Positions 20,954 to 61,562 of a stretch of 64,000 nt of DNA are shown here, in pieces (position 1 is the stretch's first letter; each line of letters begins with the position of its first letter). The notes under the pieces were generated by a model. The model worked only from the letters and a program-made list of their open reading frames with translations, made no database searches and was not told the DNA's origin. Both the position numbers and the translations under genes were made by a program. Source of the DNA: Escherichia coli (GTDB taxonomy: Bacteria > Pseudomonadota > Gammaproteobacteria > Enterobacterales > Enterobacteriaceae); assembly GCF_003018115.1 (NCBI RefSeq), contig NZ_CP027457.1; one strand, 5' to 3'.

Positions 20954-21043
20954 AATTCTTTCTTCTTGAGTAAGCGGCATCGCGCCGCGCTTGTTGAAAA
21001 CGAAAAATTGCGGCTATTTTACCCATCAACGGGGGGGAGGCAA

Positions 21044-23896: not shown

Positions 23897-23924
23897 TTGA
23901 CGAAAAGCTGAAAACCACTAGAAT
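23897..23924 (+). promoter_or_regulatory. sigma-70 promoter of the tRNA-Leu operon
   Basis: TTGACG (23897-23902), 16-bp spacer, TAGAAT (23919-23924), then GC-rich discriminator GCGCCTCC; tRNA 5' end about 40 bp downstream. Confidence 0.7.
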
Positions 23925-23965: not shown

Positions 23966-24052
23966 GCGAAGGTGGCGGAATTGGTAGACGCGCTAGCTTC
24001 AGGTGTTAGTGTCCTTACGGACGTGGGGGTTCAAGTCCCCCCCCTCGCACCA
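23966..24052 (+). tRNA. leuV: tRNA-Leu (anticodon CAG), 87 nt
   Basis: GCGAAGGTGGCGGAATTGGTAGACGCGCTAGCTTCAGGTG...TCGCACCA with encoded CCA and long variable arm. Confidence 0.95.
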
Positions 24053-24080
24053 AAAACCACGTTGATATTGCTCGCACTGG

Positions 24081-24166
24081 GCGAAGGTGGCGGAATTGGT
24101 AGACGCGCTAGCTTCAGGTGTTAGTGTTCTTACGGACGTGGGGGTTCAAGTCCCCCCCTCGCACCA
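24081..24166 (+). tRNA. leuP: tRNA-Leu (anticodon CAG), variant copy of 86 nt
   Basis: same as flanking copies except C to T in the variable arm (GTGTTCTT vs GTGTCCTT) and a C-run of 7 instead of 8 at the T-stem/acceptor junction. Confidence 0.85.
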
Positions 24167-24200: not shown

Positions 24201-24287
24201 GCGAAGGTGGCGGAATTGGTAGACGCGCTAGCTTCAGGTGTTAGTGTCCTTACGGACGTGGGGGTTCAAGTCCCCCCCCTCGCACCA
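24201..24287 (+). tRNA. leuQ: tRNA-Leu (anticodon CAG), 87 nt
   Basis: identical to the first copy. Confidence 0.95.
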
Positions 24288-53787: not shown

Positions 53788-53817
53788 GGGCCGGATAAGG
53801 CGCAGCCGCATCCGGCC
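53788..53817. repeat. REP element between yjiA and mrr
   Basis: GGGCCGGATAAGGCGCAGCCGCATCCGGCC palindrome. Confidence 0.75.
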
Positions 53818-53824
53818 TGATATT

Positions 53825-54739
53825 TCACTCAAAATAGTCCATATCCAGTTTCGGCACCTTCAACAAACGTGAAGAAACCCCTACTTCGTTTTCGATCATT
53901 AAGTGCACCAGGCGTTCCCCATCAACCAACACCATACCCTCGACGGATTGAGCAAAGTCACGCGCCTGAGACGTAAATCCAGAAGTGGTAATAAACACCC
54001 CACGTTTCGCCTTTTGCCCAGCCAGTGCGCCGTAAAATGCCTGTAATTCTGGCCTGCCTACAGTGTTCTGCCAACGTTTTGCCTGAACATAAACTTTCTC
54101 CAGGCCAAGTTTATCAAGCGATATCACACCATCGATGCCACCATCTCCAGTACCGCCAACACGCTGCAAATCATCACGGTGGCCGCCATACCCCAGGCGA
54201 TGCAAAACATCCAGAACAATGACTTCAAAGCGCGAAGGAGAAACCTGCAATAAGTTTTCCAGAACCTCATCAGCCACCGCATCACTAAGCTCTTTTAGCG
54301 CCTGATCTAACCGATCGTCCGGGCTGCTCTTTGCAAGTTCTTCATGATCGGGAGAGTCGGCTTTCGGATCTAAATCGACGGCATCCGGCCGTGACTTAAG
54401 TTTGACATTCACAAAATCGAAGGCCAGATGGTTCGTCTCCTGCTCCGTCATTGGCTGGGGATGAGACGCAACCCAGTCAAAACCCGCAGGAGTCAGGCAC
54501 CATTTGCCACGCGACAAACTTTGCGACAACCCGGCACGTTTTAAACGGTCATGCGCCCAGCCTGCACGATTTTTATAAACAAGTTGTCCGCTGGTAATGA
54601 CTTTCGCTCGCTGGCTGTCATCCAGTCCTAATGCATCCGCGGCAGCCTCATGAACATCACGCGCGGCTGCACCTTCCGGTTTTGTCGCCAGATAACGCAG
54701 AACAGGTTCAATAAATTTGTCATAGGTAGGAACCGTCAT
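53825..54739 (-). CDS. mrr: Mrr, Type IV methylated-adenine/cytosine-dependent restriction endonuclease (304 aa)
   Basis: ORF track 304 aa, MTVPTYDKFIEPVLRYLATKPEGAAARDV. Confidence 0.93.
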   Translation of the reverse strand: MTVPTYDKFIEPVLRYLATKPEGAAARDVHEAAADALGLDDSQRAKVITSGQLVYKNRAGWAHDRLKRAGLSQSLSRGKWCLTPAGFDWVASHPQPMTEQETNHLAFDFVNVKLKSRPDAVDLDPKADSPDHEELAKSSPDDRLDQALKELSDAVADEVLENLLQVSPSRFEVIVLDVLHRLGYGGHRDDLQRVGGTGDGGIDGVISLDKLGLEKVYVQAKRWQNTVGRPELQAFYGALAGQKAKRGVFITTSGFTSQARDFAQSVEGMVLVDGERLVHLMIENEVGVSSRLLKVPKLDMDYFE

Positions 54740-54926
54740 AGTACATCCTTGCAGAATCAGGTAGATGTTTTTCGGCTACTATAACACTACCAAAATAGAC
54801 GAACACGTTAGAAATGAGTCAGTTGCTGTGACCGTGGTCATTGCCCGGAAAGGTACAGAAAGCTAAGATAAGGCGTTATGGGCCTTAAATATTTGGACAG
54901 GCCCACACAGCAATGGATTAATAACA

Positions 54927-57900
54927 ATGATGAATAAATCCAATTTTGAATTCCTGAAGGGCGTCAACGACTTTACCTATGCCATCGCCTGTGCGGCGGA
55001 AAATAACTACCCGGATGATCCCAACACGACGCTGATTAAAATGCGTATGTTTGGCGAAGCCACAGCGAAACATCTTGGTCTGTTACTCAACATCCCCCCT
55101 TGTGAGAATCAACACGATCTCCTGCGCGAACTCGGCAAAATCGCCTTCGTTGATGACAACATTCTCTCTGTATTCCACAAATTACGCCGCATTGGTAACC
55201 AGGCGGTGCACGAATATCATAACGATCTCGACGATGCCCAGATGTGCCTGCGACTCGGGTTTCGCCTGGCTGTCTGGTACTACCGTCTGGTCACTAAAGA
55301 TTATGACTTCCCGGTGCCGGTGTTTGTGTTGCCGGAACGTGGTGAAAACCTCTATCACCAGGAAGTGCTGACGCTAAAACAACAGCTTGAACAGCAGGTG
55401 CGAGAAAAAGCGCAGAGTCAGGCAGAAGTCGAAGCACAACAGCAGAAGCTGGTTGCCCTGAACGGCTATATCGCCATTCTGGAAGGCAAGCAGCAGGAAA
55501 CCGAAGCGCAAACCCAGGCTCGCCTTGCTGCACTGGAAGCACAGCTCGCCGAGAAGAACGCGGAACTAGCCAAGCAGACCGAACAGGAACGTAAGGCTTA
55601 CCACAAAGAAATTACCGATCAGGCCATCAAGCGTACACTCAATCTTAGCGAAGAAGAGAGCCGCTTCCTGATTGACGCGCAACTGCGTAAAGCAGGCTGG
55701 CAGGCCGATAGCAAAACCCTGCGCTTCTCCAAAGGCGCGCGCCCGGAACCCGGCGTCAATAAAGCCATTGCCGAATGGCCGACCGGGAAAGATGAAACGG
55801 GTAATCAGGGCTTTGCGGATTATGTGCTGTTTGTCGGTCTCAAACCCATCGCGGTGGTAGAAGCGAAACGTAAAAATATCGACGTTCCCGGCAAGCTCAA
55901 TGAGTCGTATCGCTACAGTAAATGTTTCGATAATGGCTTCCTGCGGGAAACCTTGCTTGAGCACTACTCACCGGATGAAGTGCATGAAGCGGTGCCGGAG
56001 TATGAAACCAGTTGGCAGGACACCAGCGGCCAACAACGGTTTAAAATCCCCTTCTGCTACTCGACCAACGGGCGCGAATACCGCGCAGCGATGAAGACTA
56101 AAAGTGGCATCTGGTATCGCGACGTGCGTGATACCCGCAATATGTCGAAAGCCTTACCCGAGTGGCATCGCCCGGAAGAGTTGCTGGAAATGCTCGGCAG
56201 CGAACCGCAAAAACAGAATCAGTGGTTTGCCGATAATCCCGGCATGAGCGAGCTGGGCCTGCGTTATTATCAGGAAGATGCCGTCCGCGCGGTTGAAAAG
56301 GCAATCGTCAAGGGTCAACAAGAGATCCTGCTGGCGATGGCGACCGGTACCGGTAAAACCCGCACCGCAATTGCCATGATGTTCCGCCTGATCCAGTCCC
56401 AGCGTTTTAAACGCATTCTCTTCCTTGTGGATCGCCGTTCTCTTGGCGAGCAGGCGCTGGGGGCGTTTGAAGATACGCGTATTAACGGCGACACTTTCAA
56501 CAGCATTTTCGACATTAAAGGGCTGACGGATAAATTCCCCGAAGACAGCACCAAAATTCACGTTGCCACCGTACAGTCGCTGGTGAAACGCACCCTGCAA
56601 TCGGATGAACCGATGCCGGTAGCCCGTTACGACTGTATCGTCGTCGATGAAGCGCATCGCGGCTATATTCTCGATAAAGAGCAGACCGAAGGCGAACTGC
56701 AGTTCCGCAGCCAACTGGATTACGTTTCTGCCTACCGTCGTATTCTCGATCACTTCGATGCGGTAAAAATTGCTCTCACCGCCACCCCGGCGCTGCATAC
56801 GGTGCAGATTTTCGGCGAGCCGGTTTACCGTTACACCTACCGTACCGCGGTTATCGACGGTTTTCTGATCGACCAGGATCCGCCGATTCAGATCACCACC
56901 CGCAACGCACAGGAAGGGGTTTATCTCTCCAAAGGCGAGCAGGTTGAGCGCATCAGCCCGCAGGGGGAAGTGATCAACGACACCCTGGAAGACGATCAGG
57001 ATTTTGAGGTCGCCGACTTTAACCGTGGCCTGGTGATCCCGGCGTTTAACCGCGCCGTCTGTAACGAACTCACCAACTACCTTGACCCGACCGGGTTACA
57101 AAAAACGCTGGTCTTCTGCGTCACCAATGCCCATGCCGATATGGTGGTGGAAGAGTTGCGTACCGCGTTCAAGAAAAAGTATCCGCAACTGGAGCACGAC
57201 GCGATCATCAAGATCACCGGTGATGCCGATAAAGACGCGCGCAAAGTGCAGACCATGATCACCCGCTTCAATAAAGAGCGGCTGCCCAATATTGTCGTAA
57301 CCGTCGACCTGCTGACGACCGGCGTCGATATTCCGTCGATCTGTAATATCGTGTTCCTGCGTAAAGTACGCAGCCGTATTCTGTACGAGCAGATGAAAGG
57401 CCGCGCCACGCGCTTGTGCCCGGACGTGAATAAAACCAGCTTTAAGATTTTCGACTGCGTCGATATCTACAGCACGCTGGAGAGCGTCGATACCATGCGT
57501 CCGGTGGTGGTGCGCCCGAAGGTGGAACTGCAAACGCTGGTCAACGAAATTACCGATTCGGAAACCTATAAAATCACCGAAGCGGATGGCCGTAGCTTTG
57601 CCGAGCACAGCCATGAACAACTGGTGGCGAAGCTCCAGCGCATCATCGGCCTGGCCACGTTTAACCGTGACCGCAGCGAAACGATAGATAAACAGGTGCG
57701 TCGTCTGGATGAGCTATGCCAGGACGCGGCGGGCGTGAACTTTAACGGCTTCGCCTCGCGCCTGCGGGAAAAAGGGCCGCACTGGAGCGCCGAAGTCTTT
57801 AACAAACTGCCTGGCTTTATCGCCCGTCTGGAAAAGCTGAAAACCGACATCAACAACCTGAATGATGCGCCGATCTTCCTCGATATCGACGATGAAGTGG

Positions 57901-58439
57901 TGAGTGTAAAATCGCTGTACGGTGATTACGACACGCCGCAGGATTTCCTCGAAGCCTTTGACTCGCTGGTGCAACGTTCCCCGAACGCGCAACCAGCATT
58001 GCAGGCGGTGATTAATCGCCCGCGCGATCTCACCCGTAAAGGGCTGGTCGAGCTACAGGAGTGGTTTGACCGCCAGCACTTTGAGGAATCTTCCCTGCGC
58101 AAAGCGTGGAAAGAGACGCGCAATGAAGATATCGCCGCCCGGCTGATTGGACATATTCGCCGCGCTGCGGTGGGCGATGCGCTGAAACCGTTTGAGGAAC
58201 GTGTCGATCACGCGCTGACGCGCATTAAGGGCGAAAACGACTGGAGCAGCGAGCAATTAAGCTGGCTCGATCGTTTAGCGCAGGCGCTGAAAGAGAAAGT
58301 GGTGCTCGACGACGATGTCTTCAAAACCGGCAACTTCCACCGTCGCGGCGGGAAGGCGATGCTGCAAAGAACCTTTGACGATAATCTCGACAGCCTGCTC
58401 GATAAATTCAGCGATTATATCTGGGACGAGCTGGCCTGA
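54927..58439 (+). CDS. hsdR: Type I restriction enzyme R subunit HsdR (1170 aa)
   Basis: ORF track 1170 aa; helicase motif I ATGTGKT and DEAH box VVDEAHRG. Confidence 0.96.
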   Translation: MMNKSNFEFLKGVNDFTYAIACAAENNYPDDPNTTLIKMRMFGEATAKHLGLLLNIPPCENQHDLLRELGKIAFVDDNILSVFHKLRRIGNQAVHEYHNDLDDAQMCLRLGFRLAVWYYRLVTKDYDFPVPVFVLPERGENLYHQEVLTLKQQLEQQVREKAQSQAEVEAQQQKLVALNGYIAILEGKQQETEAQTQARLAALEAQLAEKNAELAKQTEQERKAYHKEITDQAIKRTLNLSEEESRFLIDAQLRKAGWQADSKTLRFSKGARPEPGVNKAIAEWPTGKDETGNQGFADYVLFVGLKPIAVVEAKRKNIDVPGKLNESYRYSKCFDNGFLRETLLEHYSPDEVHEAVPEYETSWQDTSGQQRFKIPFCYSTNGREYRAAMKTKSGIWYRDVRDTRNMSKALPEWHRPEELLEMLGSEPQKQNQWFADNPGMSELGLRYYQEDAVRAVEKAIVKGQQEILLAMATGTGKTRTAIAMMFRLIQSQRFKRILFLVDRRSLGEQALGAFEDTRINGDTFNSIFDIKGLTDKFPEDSTKIHVATVQSLVKRTLQSDEPMPVARYDCIVVDEAHRGYILDKEQTEGELQFRSQLDYVSAYRRILDHFDAVKIALTATPALHTVQIFGEPVYRYTYRTAVIDGFLIDQDPPIQITTRNAQEGVYLSKGEQVERISPQGEVINDTLEDDQDFEVADFNRGLVIPAFNRAVCNELTNYLDPTGLQKTLVFCVTNAHADMVVEELRTAFKKKYPQLEHDAIIKITGDADKDARKVQTMITRFNKERLPNIVVTVDLLTTGVDIPSICNIVFLRKVRSRILYEQMKGRATRLCPDVNKTSFKIFDCVDIYSTLESVDTMRPVVVRPKVELQTLVNEITDSETYKITEADGRSFAEHSHEQLVAKLQRIIGLATFNRDRSETIDKQVRRLDELCQDAAGVNFNGFASRLREKGPHWSAEVFNKLPGFIARLEKLKTDINNLNDAPIFLDIDDEVVSVKSLYGDYDTPQDFLEAFDSLVQRSPNAQPALQAVINRPRDLTRKGLVELQEWFDRQHFEESSLRKAWKETRNEDIAARLIGHIRRAAVGDALKPFEERVDHALTRIKGENDWSSEQLSWLDRLAQALKEKVVLDDDVFKTGNFHRRGGKAMLQRTFDDNLDSLLDKFSDYIWDELA

Positions 58440-58515
58440 CACGGTATCATTCCCGGCAATTTCTTCTTCTGCGGCCCAATAAATTTGGGCCGCTGCTTAA
58501 TTTACGGAACACCCA

Positions 58516-60105
58516 ATGAACAATAACGATCTGGTCGCGAAGCTGTGGAAGCTGTGCGACAACCTGCGCGATGGCGGCGTTTCCTATCAAAACTACGTCA
58601 ATGAACTCGCCTCGCTGCTGTTTTTGAAAATGTGTAAAGAGACCGGGCAGGAAGCGGAATACCTGCCGGAAGGCTACCGCTGGGATGACCTGAAATCCCG
58701 CATCGGCCAGGATCAATTGCAGTTCTACCGTAACCTGCTGGTACATCTGGGCGCCGACAATCAAAAGCTGGTGCAGGCGGTGTTCCAGAACGTCAACACC
58801 ACCATTACCCAGCCAAAACAGTTGACCGAACTGGTCACAAATATGGATTCGCTGGACTGGTATAACGGTGCGCACGGTAAGTCGCGCGATGACTTCGGCG
58901 ATATGTACGAAGGGCTGTTGCAGAAGAACGCCAACGAAACCAAGTCTGGCGCGGGCCAGTACTTCACCCCGCGTCCGCTGATTAAAACCATTATTCATCT
59001 GCTGAAACCGCAGCCGCGTGAAGTGGTGCAGGACCCGGCAGCAGGTACGGCGGGCTTTTTGATTGAAGCCGACCGCTACGTTAAGTCGCAGACCAATGAT
59101 CTGGACGACCTTGATGGCGATACGCAGGATTTCCAGATCCACCGCGCGTTTATCGGCCTCGAACTGGTGCCCGGCACCCGTCGTCTGGCGCTGATGAACT
59201 GCCTGCTGCACGATATTGAAGGCAACCTCGACCACGGCGGCGCAATCCGTCTGGGCAACACTCTGGGTAGCGACGGCGAAAACCTGCCGAAGGCGCATAT
59301 TGTCGCCACTAACCCGCCGTTTGGCAGCGCCGCAGGCACCAACATTACCCGCACCTTTGTTCACCCGACCAGCAATAAACAGTTGTGCTTTATGCAGCAT
59401 ATTATCGAAACGCTGCACCCCGGCGGTCGTGCGGCGGTGGTGGTGCCGGATAACGTGCTGTTTGAAGGCGGCAAAGGCACCGACATTCGTCGTGACCTGA
59501 TGGATAAGTGTCATCTGCACACTATTCTGCGTCTGCCGACCGGTATTTTTTACGCGCAGGGCGTGAAAACCAACGTGCTGTTCTTTACCAAAGGCACGGT
59601 GGCGAACCCGAATCAGGATAAGAACTGCACCGATGATGTGTGGGTGTACGACCTGCGTACCAATATGCCGAGCTTCGGCAAGCGCACGCCGTTTACTGAC
59701 GAACATCTGCAGCCGTTTGAGCGGGTGTATGGCGAAGATCCCCACGGCTTAAGCCCGCGCACTGAAGGCGACTGGGAATTCGACGCAGAAAAAAGTGAAA
59801 TTGCCGACAGCGAAGAGAACAAAAACACCGACCAGCATCTGGCTACCAGCCGCTGGCGCAAGTTCAGCCGCGAGTGGATCCGCACCGCGAAATCCGATTC
59901 GCTGGATATCTCCTGGCTGAAAGATAAAGACAGCATTGACGCCGACAACCTGCCGGAGCCGGATGTATTAGCGGCAGAAGCGATGGGCGAGCTGGTACAG
60001 GCGCTGGGCGAACTGGATGCGTTGATGCGTGAACTGGGGGCGAGCGATGAGGCGGATGCACAGCGTCAGTTGCTGGAAGAAGCGTTTGGTGGGGTGAAGG
60101 AATGA
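58516..60105 (+). CDS. hsdM: Type I restriction-modification M subunit HsdM, N6-adenine methyltransferase (529 aa)
   Basis: ORF track 529 aa; motif IV NPPFG and SAM-binding region. Confidence 0.96.
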   Translation: MNNNDLVAKLWKLCDNLRDGGVSYQNYVNELASLLFLKMCKETGQEAEYLPEGYRWDDLKSRIGQDQLQFYRNLLVHLGADNQKLVQAVFQNVNTTITQPKQLTELVTNMDSLDWYNGAHGKSRDDFGDMYEGLLQKNANETKSGAGQYFTPRPLIKTIIHLLKPQPREVVQDPAAGTAGFLIEADRYVKSQTNDLDDLDGDTQDFQIHRAFIGLELVPGTRRLALMNCLLHDIEGNLDHGGAIRLGNTLGSDGENLPKAHIVATNPPFGSAAGTNITRTFVHPTSNKQLCFMQHIIETLHPGGRAAVVVPDNVLFEGGKGTDIRRDLMDKCHLHTILRLPTGIFYAQGVKTNVLFFTKGTVANPNQDKNCTDDVWVYDLRTNMPSFGKRTPFTDEHLQPFERVYGEDPHGLSPRTEGDWEFDAEKSEIADSEENKNTDQHLATSRWRKFSREWIRTAKSDSLDISWLKDKDSIDADNLPEPDVLAAEAMGELVQALGELDALMRELGASDEADAQRQLLEEAFGGVKE

Positions 60106-61430
60106 GTGCGGGGAAATTGCCAGAGGGGTGGGTTGAAACTCAATTAGAAAATATCGTTGATATTTTAGACTCAATGCGTGTCCCGGTTAATAATTCTGAG
60201 AGACAATCACGCATTGCAGGAAAAAAAGAAAATGAACTTTATCCCTATTTTGGTGCTACCGGTGAAGTCGGTAAAATTGATGATTATATTTTTGATGAAG
60301 AACTTGTTGCATTAGGTGAAGATGGTGTTCCTTTTTTTGATGGGCACAAAAATAAGGCTTATATGCTGTATGGTAAAACGTGGGTGAATAATCATGCTCA
60401 TGTAATAAGAGCTATCTCTGGACTAAGCCATAACAAGTATTTATGCCATTATCTTAACCAATTCGACTATCATGATTATGTAAACGGCGGGACCAGGCTT
60501 AAACTTACACAAGCGAATATGAGAAAACTACCTGTTAGTTTAGCGCCTCTCGCCGAACAAAAAATCATCGCAGAAAAACTCGATACGCTGCTGGCGCAGG
60601 TAGAGAGCACCAAAGCACGTCTTGAGCAAATCCCACAAATCCTGAAACGTTTTCGTCAGGCGGTGTTGGCTGCTGTTGTTAATGGAAAATTATCAAAGAA
60701 CACGAAGCAATGGGAAATATACTTATTAAAAAATCTTTGTACTAGCATTTCAGATGGCGATCATCAGGCTCCTCCAAAATCAGAAACAGGAGTGCCTTTC
60801 CTCGTAATCTCCGATGTTAATAAAGGGGTGATTGATTTTGATAATGTAACCAGATGGGTGCCTGAATCTTACTACCAATCGCTAAAAGAAATTAGAAAAC
60901 CATGCCAATATGATATTTTATATACAGTTACAGGTTCTTATGGAATACCTGTAATTGTTAACGACAATAAACCATTTTGTTTCCAGCGACATATTGCCAT
61001 CATCAAGCCAAACAGAAATTTAATTGATCATAGATTCTTAGCTTTCTATTTAGAATCACCACAAATTCTCAAACATGCAAGTGATGTTGCTACTGGGACC
61101 GCACAAAAAACAGTATCGCTGTCGAGTCTCCGAAATTTTGAGATCTCTGTTCCCCCTTTAAAAGAACAACACGAAATCGTTCGTCGCGTCGAGCAACTCT
61201 TCGCCTACGCCGACACTATTGAAAAACAGGTCAACAACGCCCTGGCCCGCGTCAACAACCTGACGCAATCCATTCTGGCAAAAGCGTTCCGTGGTGAACT
61301 CACCGCCCAGTGGCGGGCCGAAAACCCGGAATTGATCAGCGGAGAAAACAGCGCCGCCGCGTTGCTGGAGAAAATCAAAGCTGAACGCGCAGCCAGCGGG
61401 GGTAAAAAAGCCTCGCGTAAAAAATCCTGA
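60102..61430 (+). CDS. hsdS: Type I restriction-modification specificity subunit HsdS (442 aa), Type IA framework with non-EcoKI target-recognition domains
   Basis: ORF track; ATGA overlap with hsdM; conserved N-terminus MSAGKLPEGWV, central LAPLAEQKIIAEKLDTLLAQVESTKARLEQIPQILKRFRQAVL and C-terminal PPLKEQHEIVRRVEQLFAYADTIEKQVNNALARV blocks flank two AT-rich variable segments. Confidence 0.9.
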   Translation: MSAGKLPEGWVETQLENIVDILDSMRVPVNNSERQSRIAGKKENELYPYFGATGEVGKIDDYIFDEELVALGEDGVPFFDGHKNKAYMLYGKTWVNNHAHVIRAISGLSHNKYLCHYLNQFDYHDYVNGGTRLKLTQANMRKLPVSLAPLAEQKIIAEKLDTLLAQVESTKARLEQIPQILKRFRQAVLAAVVNGKLSKNTKQWEIYLLKNLCTSISDGDHQAPPKSETGVPFLVISDVNKGVIDFDNVTRWVPESYYQSLKEIRKPCQYDILYTVTGSYGIPVIVNDNKPFCFQRHIAIIKPNRNLIDHRFLAFYLESPQILKHASDVATGTAQKTVSLSSLRNFEISVPPLKEQHEIVRRVEQLFAYADTIEKQVNNALARVNNLTQSILAKAFRGELTAQWRAENPELISGENSAAALLEKIKAERAASGGKKASRKKS

Positions 61431-61562
61431 ACATTATTTTCTGGCGCACCTTTCCGGTGCGCTTTTAATTATTTCACGCCAATCATAATTCACGCAAATA
61501 TATTTAAATCACTCCAGAAATTGCCCATTTTATTCTATTTTTAGCTGGACTTTCCCTGTATT

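Follow-up and report, generated by a model that had tools for sequence, protein, structure and literature searches.

A one-base-short leuP gene in the leuQPV array of an Escherichia coli chromosome is very probably a homopolymer-length assembly error

In Escherichia coli K-12 MG1655 a textbook array of three tRNA-Leu genes, the leuQ-leuP-leuV operon, is located between rsmC and yjjZ, and its middle gene leuP is already known as an isodecoder which carries a T in the variable arm. A second body of knowledge that bears on this array concerns the way in which bacterial genomes are assembled. For long-read-only assemblies, the relevant part of the Polypolish paper (Wick and Holt, PMC8812927) states that residual errors are mostly errors of homopolymer length, and that they persist in repeats after short-read polishing.

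The DNA analyzed here is a stretch of 64,000 nucleotides (the window) from the E. coli contig NZ_CP027457.1 (assembly GCF_003018115.1). ARAGORN identified three tRNA-Leu(CAG) genes on the plus strand, at 23966-24052 (87 nt), 24080-24165 (86 nt) and 24201-24287 (87 nt). The array region could be matched in 5,425 of 5,426 complete E. coli genomes, where the annotation gives three tRNA-Leu genes adjoining yjjZ. In K-12 and in three sister genomes of the window, the genes are annotated in the rsmC - leuQ-leuP-leuV - yjjZ locus. The surroundings of K-12 leuP (b4369) are the same as in the window, namely rsmC, three tRNA-Leu genes, yjjZ and fhuF, and the spacers are also alike. Copy 2 of the window and K-12 leuP are identical at 86 of 87 positions and share the variable-arm T; the difference is that the run of 8 C at the junction of T stem and acceptor stem is one C shorter in the window. 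The features to which the text refers are as follows.

21031 to 21037, plus strand: G7 run between prfC and yjjG, used as control site, from the homopolymer census
23897 to 23924, plus strand: promoter-like site (TTGACG, 16 nt spacer, TAGAAT) from a consensus scan, 10/12 matches, 42 nt upstream of copy 1
23966 to 24052, plus strand: tRNA-Leu(CAG) copy 1, leuQ orthologue, 87 nt with 8 C, found by ARAGORN, Rfam tRNA 48.5 bits, equal to K-12 leuQ
24081 to 24166, plus strand: tRNA-Leu(CAG) copy 2, leuP orthologue, 86 nt as written, Rfam tRNA 40.8 bits, equal to K-12 leuP minus one C
24128, plus strand: T (U) of the leuP allele at pair three of the variable-arm stem, as in K-12 leuP
24152 to 24158, plus strand: C7 run (8 C expected) that comprises the 3' strand of the T stem and bases one to three of the acceptor 3' strand
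24201 to 24287, plus strand: tRNA-Leu(CAG) copy 3, leuV orthologue, 87 nt with 8 C, found by ARAGORN, Rfam tRNA 48.5 bits, equal to K-12 leuV

The promoter-like site is unchanged compared to K-12 MG1655 upstream of leuQ, and from its position it would serve the tRNA operon. At the far end of the window, approximately 53800-61500, correspondence with the annotation of the sister genome E1373 indicated an mrr - hsdR - hsdM - hsdS - symE restriction region and, behind it, a gene for a GmrSD-domain endonuclease, both of which are unrelated to the tRNA genes.

The original prediction, which was made from the sequence of the window alone, described copies 1 and 3 as identical 87-nt genes and copy 2 as a gene of 86 nt with T instead of C in the variable arm and 7 instead of 8 C further downstream. 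The raw sequence and the alignment of the copies confirmed this description, with the T at 24128 and the 7 C at 24152-24158; these differences are a direct fact of the sequence and not a statistical pattern. It had also been proposed that the variable-arm T could still pair, and indeed the third pair of this stem changed from C-G to U.G in the drawing produced by ARAGORN. The further claim that loss of one C would disturb the register of the T stem or the acceptor stem was borne out by both programs. Infernal placed the deletion of copy 2 in the 3' strand of the acceptor stem, next to a non-standard A5.C68 pair which is common to all three copies. ARAGORN shifted the register, in that the upstream G24080 was recruited as a G.A mispair to keep seven acceptor positions, three bases were left between the acceptor and D stems, and the normal A73-CCA end was lost. 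The offset of one base in the ARAGORN coordinates of copy 2 is due to the missing base. Scoring against the Rfam tRNA model (RF00005, gathering score 29), which had been suggested as a check, yielded 48.5, 40.8 and 48.5 bits for copies 1, 2 and 3, respectively.

As written, copy 2 retains the class II tRNA-Leu cloverleaf in ARAGORN, including the D and T arms, the CAG anticodon and the long variable arm, and scores above the Rfam threshold. The seven-position acceptor stem followed by A73 and the encoded CCA, which together with the rest of the gene amount to 87 nt, is not complete, as the 3' strand of the acceptor stem has 6 bases. This failure of the acceptor stem is attributed to the written sequence and not to the gene itself. 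The non-standard A5.C68 pair was found by Infernal and ARAGORN at 23970/24044, 24085/24158-24159 and 24205/24279 in copies 1, 2 and 3.

The substitution and the missing C had been taken as one phenomenon in the original prediction, but they are two separate matters, with the T being the normal leuP allele and the run length another question. Alignment with K-12 MG1655 leuP showed the identical T at the position corresponding to 24128, and the 3' half of leuP, comprising the T, 8 C and the downstream spacer, was matched exactly in 3,381 complete E. coli genomes. Outside E. coli, 16 of the 19 three-copy arrays among the matches listed for species representatives across Enterobacterales genera had the order C-T-C, with the T in the middle gene. 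Arrays of this order include those of Escherichia albertii, Salmonella enterica subsp. arizonae, Citrobacter, Klebsiella oxytoca, Raoultella, Phytobacter and Pseudocitrobacter. Since the T is present in K-12 leuP, in 3,381 genomes and in the middle genes of other genera, these comparisons identify the variable-arm U as a genuine, old and conserved leuP isodecoder allele and not as a sign of decay, and its place in the array is likewise old and conserved.

The length of the gene was then compared in 180 Leu(CAG) copies among the matches listed for Enterobacterales species-representative genomes. A length of 87 nt was kept in 176 of these copies. In 120 copies 8 C and the A5.C68 pair were present, and a further 56, from Photorhabdus, Xenorhabdus, Morganella, Proteus and Moellerella, had CCCCCCCT with U68 opposite G5 or U5, all of them still 87 nt long. 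Two copies had 9 C. The remaining two had 7 C and were both located in one complete chromosome, that of Kluyvera genomosp. 3 YDC799, where one of them was also without a G. Judged from this sample, position 68 may change its identity yet stays present. Taken together, the 120 copies with A5.C68 and the 56 with U68 show that tRNA-Leu(CAG) has conserved a mismatch or wobble at 5:68.

The best 24-kb matches identified three chromosomes of enterotoxigenic E. coli (ETEC) O169:H41/ST182, E1373, F8111-1SC3 and 2014EL-1345-2, as the nearest relatives of the window, none of them identical to it. Over 48 kb, 0-8 substitutions were found among the window and its three sisters, and 6-8 when the window was compared with the sisters. 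All indels among the four chromosomes in these 48 kb were one-base shortenings of either the three C8 runs of the tRNA genes or the G7 run at 21031, the change from G7 to G6 at 21031 being the only indel outside the tRNA genes. The run lengths were distributed as follows.

E1373: leuQ/leuP/leuV C-runs 8/8/8; G run at 21031, G7
Window: leuQ/leuP/leuV C-runs 8/7/8; G run at 21031, G7
F8111-1SC3: leuQ/leuP/leuV C-runs 8/7/7; G run at 21031, G6
2014EL-1345-2: leuQ/leuP/leuV C-runs 7/7/7; G run at 21031, G6

In the order listed, the four chromosomes thus have 0, 1, 2 and 3 shortened tRNA copies, and RefSeq gives the tRNA genes of the sisters as 87 or 86 nt according to run length. E1373 and F8111-1SC3 have zero substitutions over 48 kb, yet differ in three homopolymers, and the 7 C lacks phylogenetic coherence among the four ST182 genomes. 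When the window was compared with E1373 over all 64 kb, 9 SNPs and a single indel, the C-run of leuP, were found; the difference of one base from otherwise near-identical relatives is confined to a long homopolymer. A homopolymer census of the 64-kb window revealed only four G/C runs of at least 7 bases, which are the three tRNA C-runs and the G7 run. The ten A/T runs of 7-8 bases in the window were constant in length among the sister genomes.

The way in which the sisters were sequenced matches this distribution. E1373 was assembled from PacBio RSII and Illumina reads, and this hybrid assembly has the canonical lengths (8/8/8, G7). The genome of 2014EL-1345-2 is attributed to Smith et al. 2018 on CDC ETEC genomes, the title of which ends with 'Generated with PacBio Sequencing', and F8111-1SC3, which comes from the same accession series, is presumably also of PacBio origin. 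With these two origins taken from a paper title and from the accession series, respectively, the other sisters are variable at just those sites at which the hybrid assembly is canonical, as is characteristic of long-read errors.

The SNPs between the window and E1373 are located at 9780, 26812, 28126, 35948, 40786, 45312, 54286, 57453 and 58694. None of the three sisters has any of the six SNPs that fall in the first 48 kb, and 5 of these 6 are G-to-A changes on the plus strand. Five SNPs are located in genes, three of them synonymous and the other two resulting in YjjQ M26I and YjjP G207R. The yjjQ M26I SNP (26812) was found in 0 of 5,414 complete E. coli genomes and is present in many draft assemblies, and a protein look-up for the YjjP G207R product returned no record.

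Run lengths also differed among laboratory strains. Strain ER1709 equals K-12 MG1655 over approximately 550 bp of the locus except for homopolymers; each of the three genes has C7 instead of C8, and one also has G4 instead of G5. The latter change lies in the T stem of the first gene, and the genes are annotated with lengths of 85, 86 and 86 nt. A run of 7 C is located at copy 1 in K-12 NEB 5-alpha and at copy 3 in K-12 DHB4, compared with 8/8/8 in MG1655. As biology, independent deletions in different copies among laboratory derivatives of one strain are not credible. The T-stem G5 run is one base short not only in the 7-C copy 1 of ER1709 but also in a 7-C copy of Kluyvera genomosp. 3 YDC799, which results in 'genes' of 85 nt; RefSeq still annotates the 85-nt copy of ER1709 as tRNA-Leu.

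Within the population, run lengths were counted by exact match with a unique flank among the 5,426 complete E. coli genomes. A run of 7 C was present at copy 1 (leuQ) in 177, at copy 2 (leuP) in 140 and at copy 3 (leuV) in 156 complete genomes, and therefore the three genes are affected at similar rates. At leuP, 8 C were found in 3,381 and 9 C in 24 complete genomes, and 10 C in two other assemblies. The 140 genomes with 7 C at leuP are spread over unrelated serotypes. Shortened copies occurred together far more often than expected, since 13 of 40 listed cases with 7 C at leuP also had 7 C at copy 1 and 18 had 7 C at copy 3, compared to at most 1.3 and 1.2 expected, and all three copies were shortened in at least 6 assemblies versus 0.13 expected in the whole collection. 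Of the 24 genomes with 9 C at leuP, 12 belong to a single submission batch (CP195143, CP1959xx) of diverse isolates from rivers and wastewater; this is a batch-linked overcount and the mirror image of the undercount to 7 C.

The co-occurrence of 7 C, the 9-C batch and the affected ER1709 and K-12 strains all show a dependence on assembly and batch rather than on phylogeny. Run length deviates in both directions and is tied to assembly and batch, which is the behavior that a technical error predicts. An effect of an early PacBio-only era was considered and dropped, as tied matches are listed with old accessions roughly first and 7 C occurs in recent assemblies too; it is not limited to one platform or era.

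Short-read data served as a further control. In metagenome contigs, runs linked to the leuP spacer had 8 C in 33 of 33 cases, a result for which zero 7 C would arise by chance with P = 0.26 even at a rate of 4%. Among all 87 Leu(CAG) copies in such contigs, 85 had 8 C, 2 had 9 C and 0 had 7 C, the probability of zero being 0.07 at a rate of 3%. The metagenome result agrees with an artefact, in a sample which is too small to exclude a rate of 4%. A draft genome from the sublineage of the window, GCA_012883115.1 (contig AATKYY010000001.1), which is one of those with the yjjQ M26I SNP, has 8 C beside the leuP-specific spacer in an array of only two copies. Such a reduced array might have arisen when short reads collapsed the tandem repeat, or leuQ and leuP may really have recombined, and the 8 C found there are supportive but ambiguous. 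In this draft (locus 8560-8860) a leuQ-type body is joined to the leuP-specific downstream spacer and is followed by leuV. A second draft contig ends at the tRNA array.

While the variation of run length among assemblies is observed directly, the error in this particular window is inferred from the pattern as a whole, and it is concluded that the missing C of leuP is very probably present in the DNA and lost through an error of homopolymer length in the assembly. A long-read consensus would have undercounted the 8-C homopolymer of leuP by one base, and such an undercount could survive short-read polishing in a run inside a gene that is repeated three times in tandem and once elsewhere. Polishing may fail at this run because short reads have no unique placement in the repeat. 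The cell would then make a normal 87-nt tRNA-Leu(CAG). With a run of 8 C in a gene that is present three times in tandem and once elsewhere, both conditions named in the relevant part of the Polypolish paper (PMC8812927) apply. The persistence of such errors in repeats after polishing accounts for the fact that 7 C is still found in recent assemblies. The original prediction had offered three options for copy 2, a decaying tRNA copy, a functional variant with altered structure, or a homopolymer sequencing or assembly error; the last of these is the one that the sister genomes, the co-occurrence, the batch and the laboratory strains support.

A homopolymer of eight bases is a plausible site of replication slippage, and a real one-base slippage deletion in the leuP run of this strain was weighed against the assembly error. 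The acceptor 3' strand would then have 6 instead of 7 bases, A5 would be bulged or the register shifted, and the product would probably be poorly processed or charged, with the three other Leu(CAG) genes as a buffer. Damage could be modest, as the wild-type A5.C68 mismatch is already present at the site where Infernal placed the deletion, and the score of the variant, 40.8 bits, exceeds the threshold of 29 bits. A point that favors slippage and runs counter to an artefact is that the other three long G/C runs of the window are correct, which also means that the assembly of the window is better than those of its two CDC sisters. The same 'mutation', however, would have to be present in differing combinations among near-identical genomes and K-12 strains, and 7 C clusters by assembly and not by relatedness. 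It was seen in 0 of 87 copies in short-read metagenome contigs and, in the species-representative sample of matches listed, in a single complete chromosome, and the length of 87 nt holds throughout the order, including copies in which position 68 changes. Moreover, the best ARAGORN model of the variant has no A73-CCA end, and A73 is a major identity element for LeuRS. A real deletion in this strain is thus considered improbable. Slightly less probable still is the reading in which 7-C leuP is a genuine slippage allele that yields an 86-nt tRNA-Leu(CAG) which is tolerated or even used, with some of the approximately 3-4% of genomes with 7 C being real too; if the allele were real, such a tRNA could be tolerated or used because the wild-type stem already contains the A5.C68 mismatch at this site.

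That copy 2 might be an incipient pseudogene, in which changes accumulate under the redundancy of the array, is suggested by its two differences from the neighbors and its lower covariance-model score. One of these differences, however, is the conserved leuP allele which is common to K-12 and other genera, and only in run length does the gene depart from K-12 leuP. The operon is intact, as are the genes on both sides, and the promoter-like site is unchanged, so that neither disruption of several stems nor loss of expression signals, by which a pseudogene would be recognized, is seen in copy 2. Decay is accordingly highly unlikely. Equally small is the chance that copy 2 is a functional, selected tRNA-Leu variant with a shortened junction of acceptor and T stem. 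Its exact sequence is present in 140 complete genomes, but these genomes are of unrelated serotypes, with laboratory strains among them, the sister genes share the rate of shortening and the assemblies in which it occurs, and E1373, the closest relative that was assembled with short-read support, has 8 C. An assembly error in the C-run of an otherwise normal leuP gene is therefore the preferred reading.

The biological weight of the variant is small, as it is located in an ordinary leuQPV array and in a known leuP isodecoder. In practice, the variant bears on the quality of data. About 4% of complete E. coli genomes with exact leuP flanks would carry a miscounted C-run (140 with 7 C and 24 with 9 C versus 3,381 with 8 C), and such errors would enter catalogues of tRNA genes as spurious 'isodecoders' of 85, 86 or 88 nt. 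Scans that compare tandem copies would take them for variation. Routine polishing with short reads tends to fail at such sites, which belong to a repeat.

Compared with known systems, the leuP run resembles the homopolymer tracts of phase-variable contingency loci in that its length differs by one base between isolates, with 7, 8, 9 and even 10 C. Unlike these tracts, which are found in promoters or reading frames of genes that can be switched, it is part of a tRNA gene, and its variation follows assembly and batch and not lineage, with K-12 derivatives showing it too; switching that follows lineage or selection, by which contingency loci are recognized, is not seen in the variation of this run among assemblies. 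A closer likeness is found to the long-read homopolymer errors treated in the relevant part of the Polypolish paper (PMC8812927). The leuP run shares with these errors the difference of a single base, the long G/C homopolymer and the repeated sequence, as well as the variation of sister long-read assemblies at the same sites and the dependence on assembly and batch, and from this pattern the window would belong among them.
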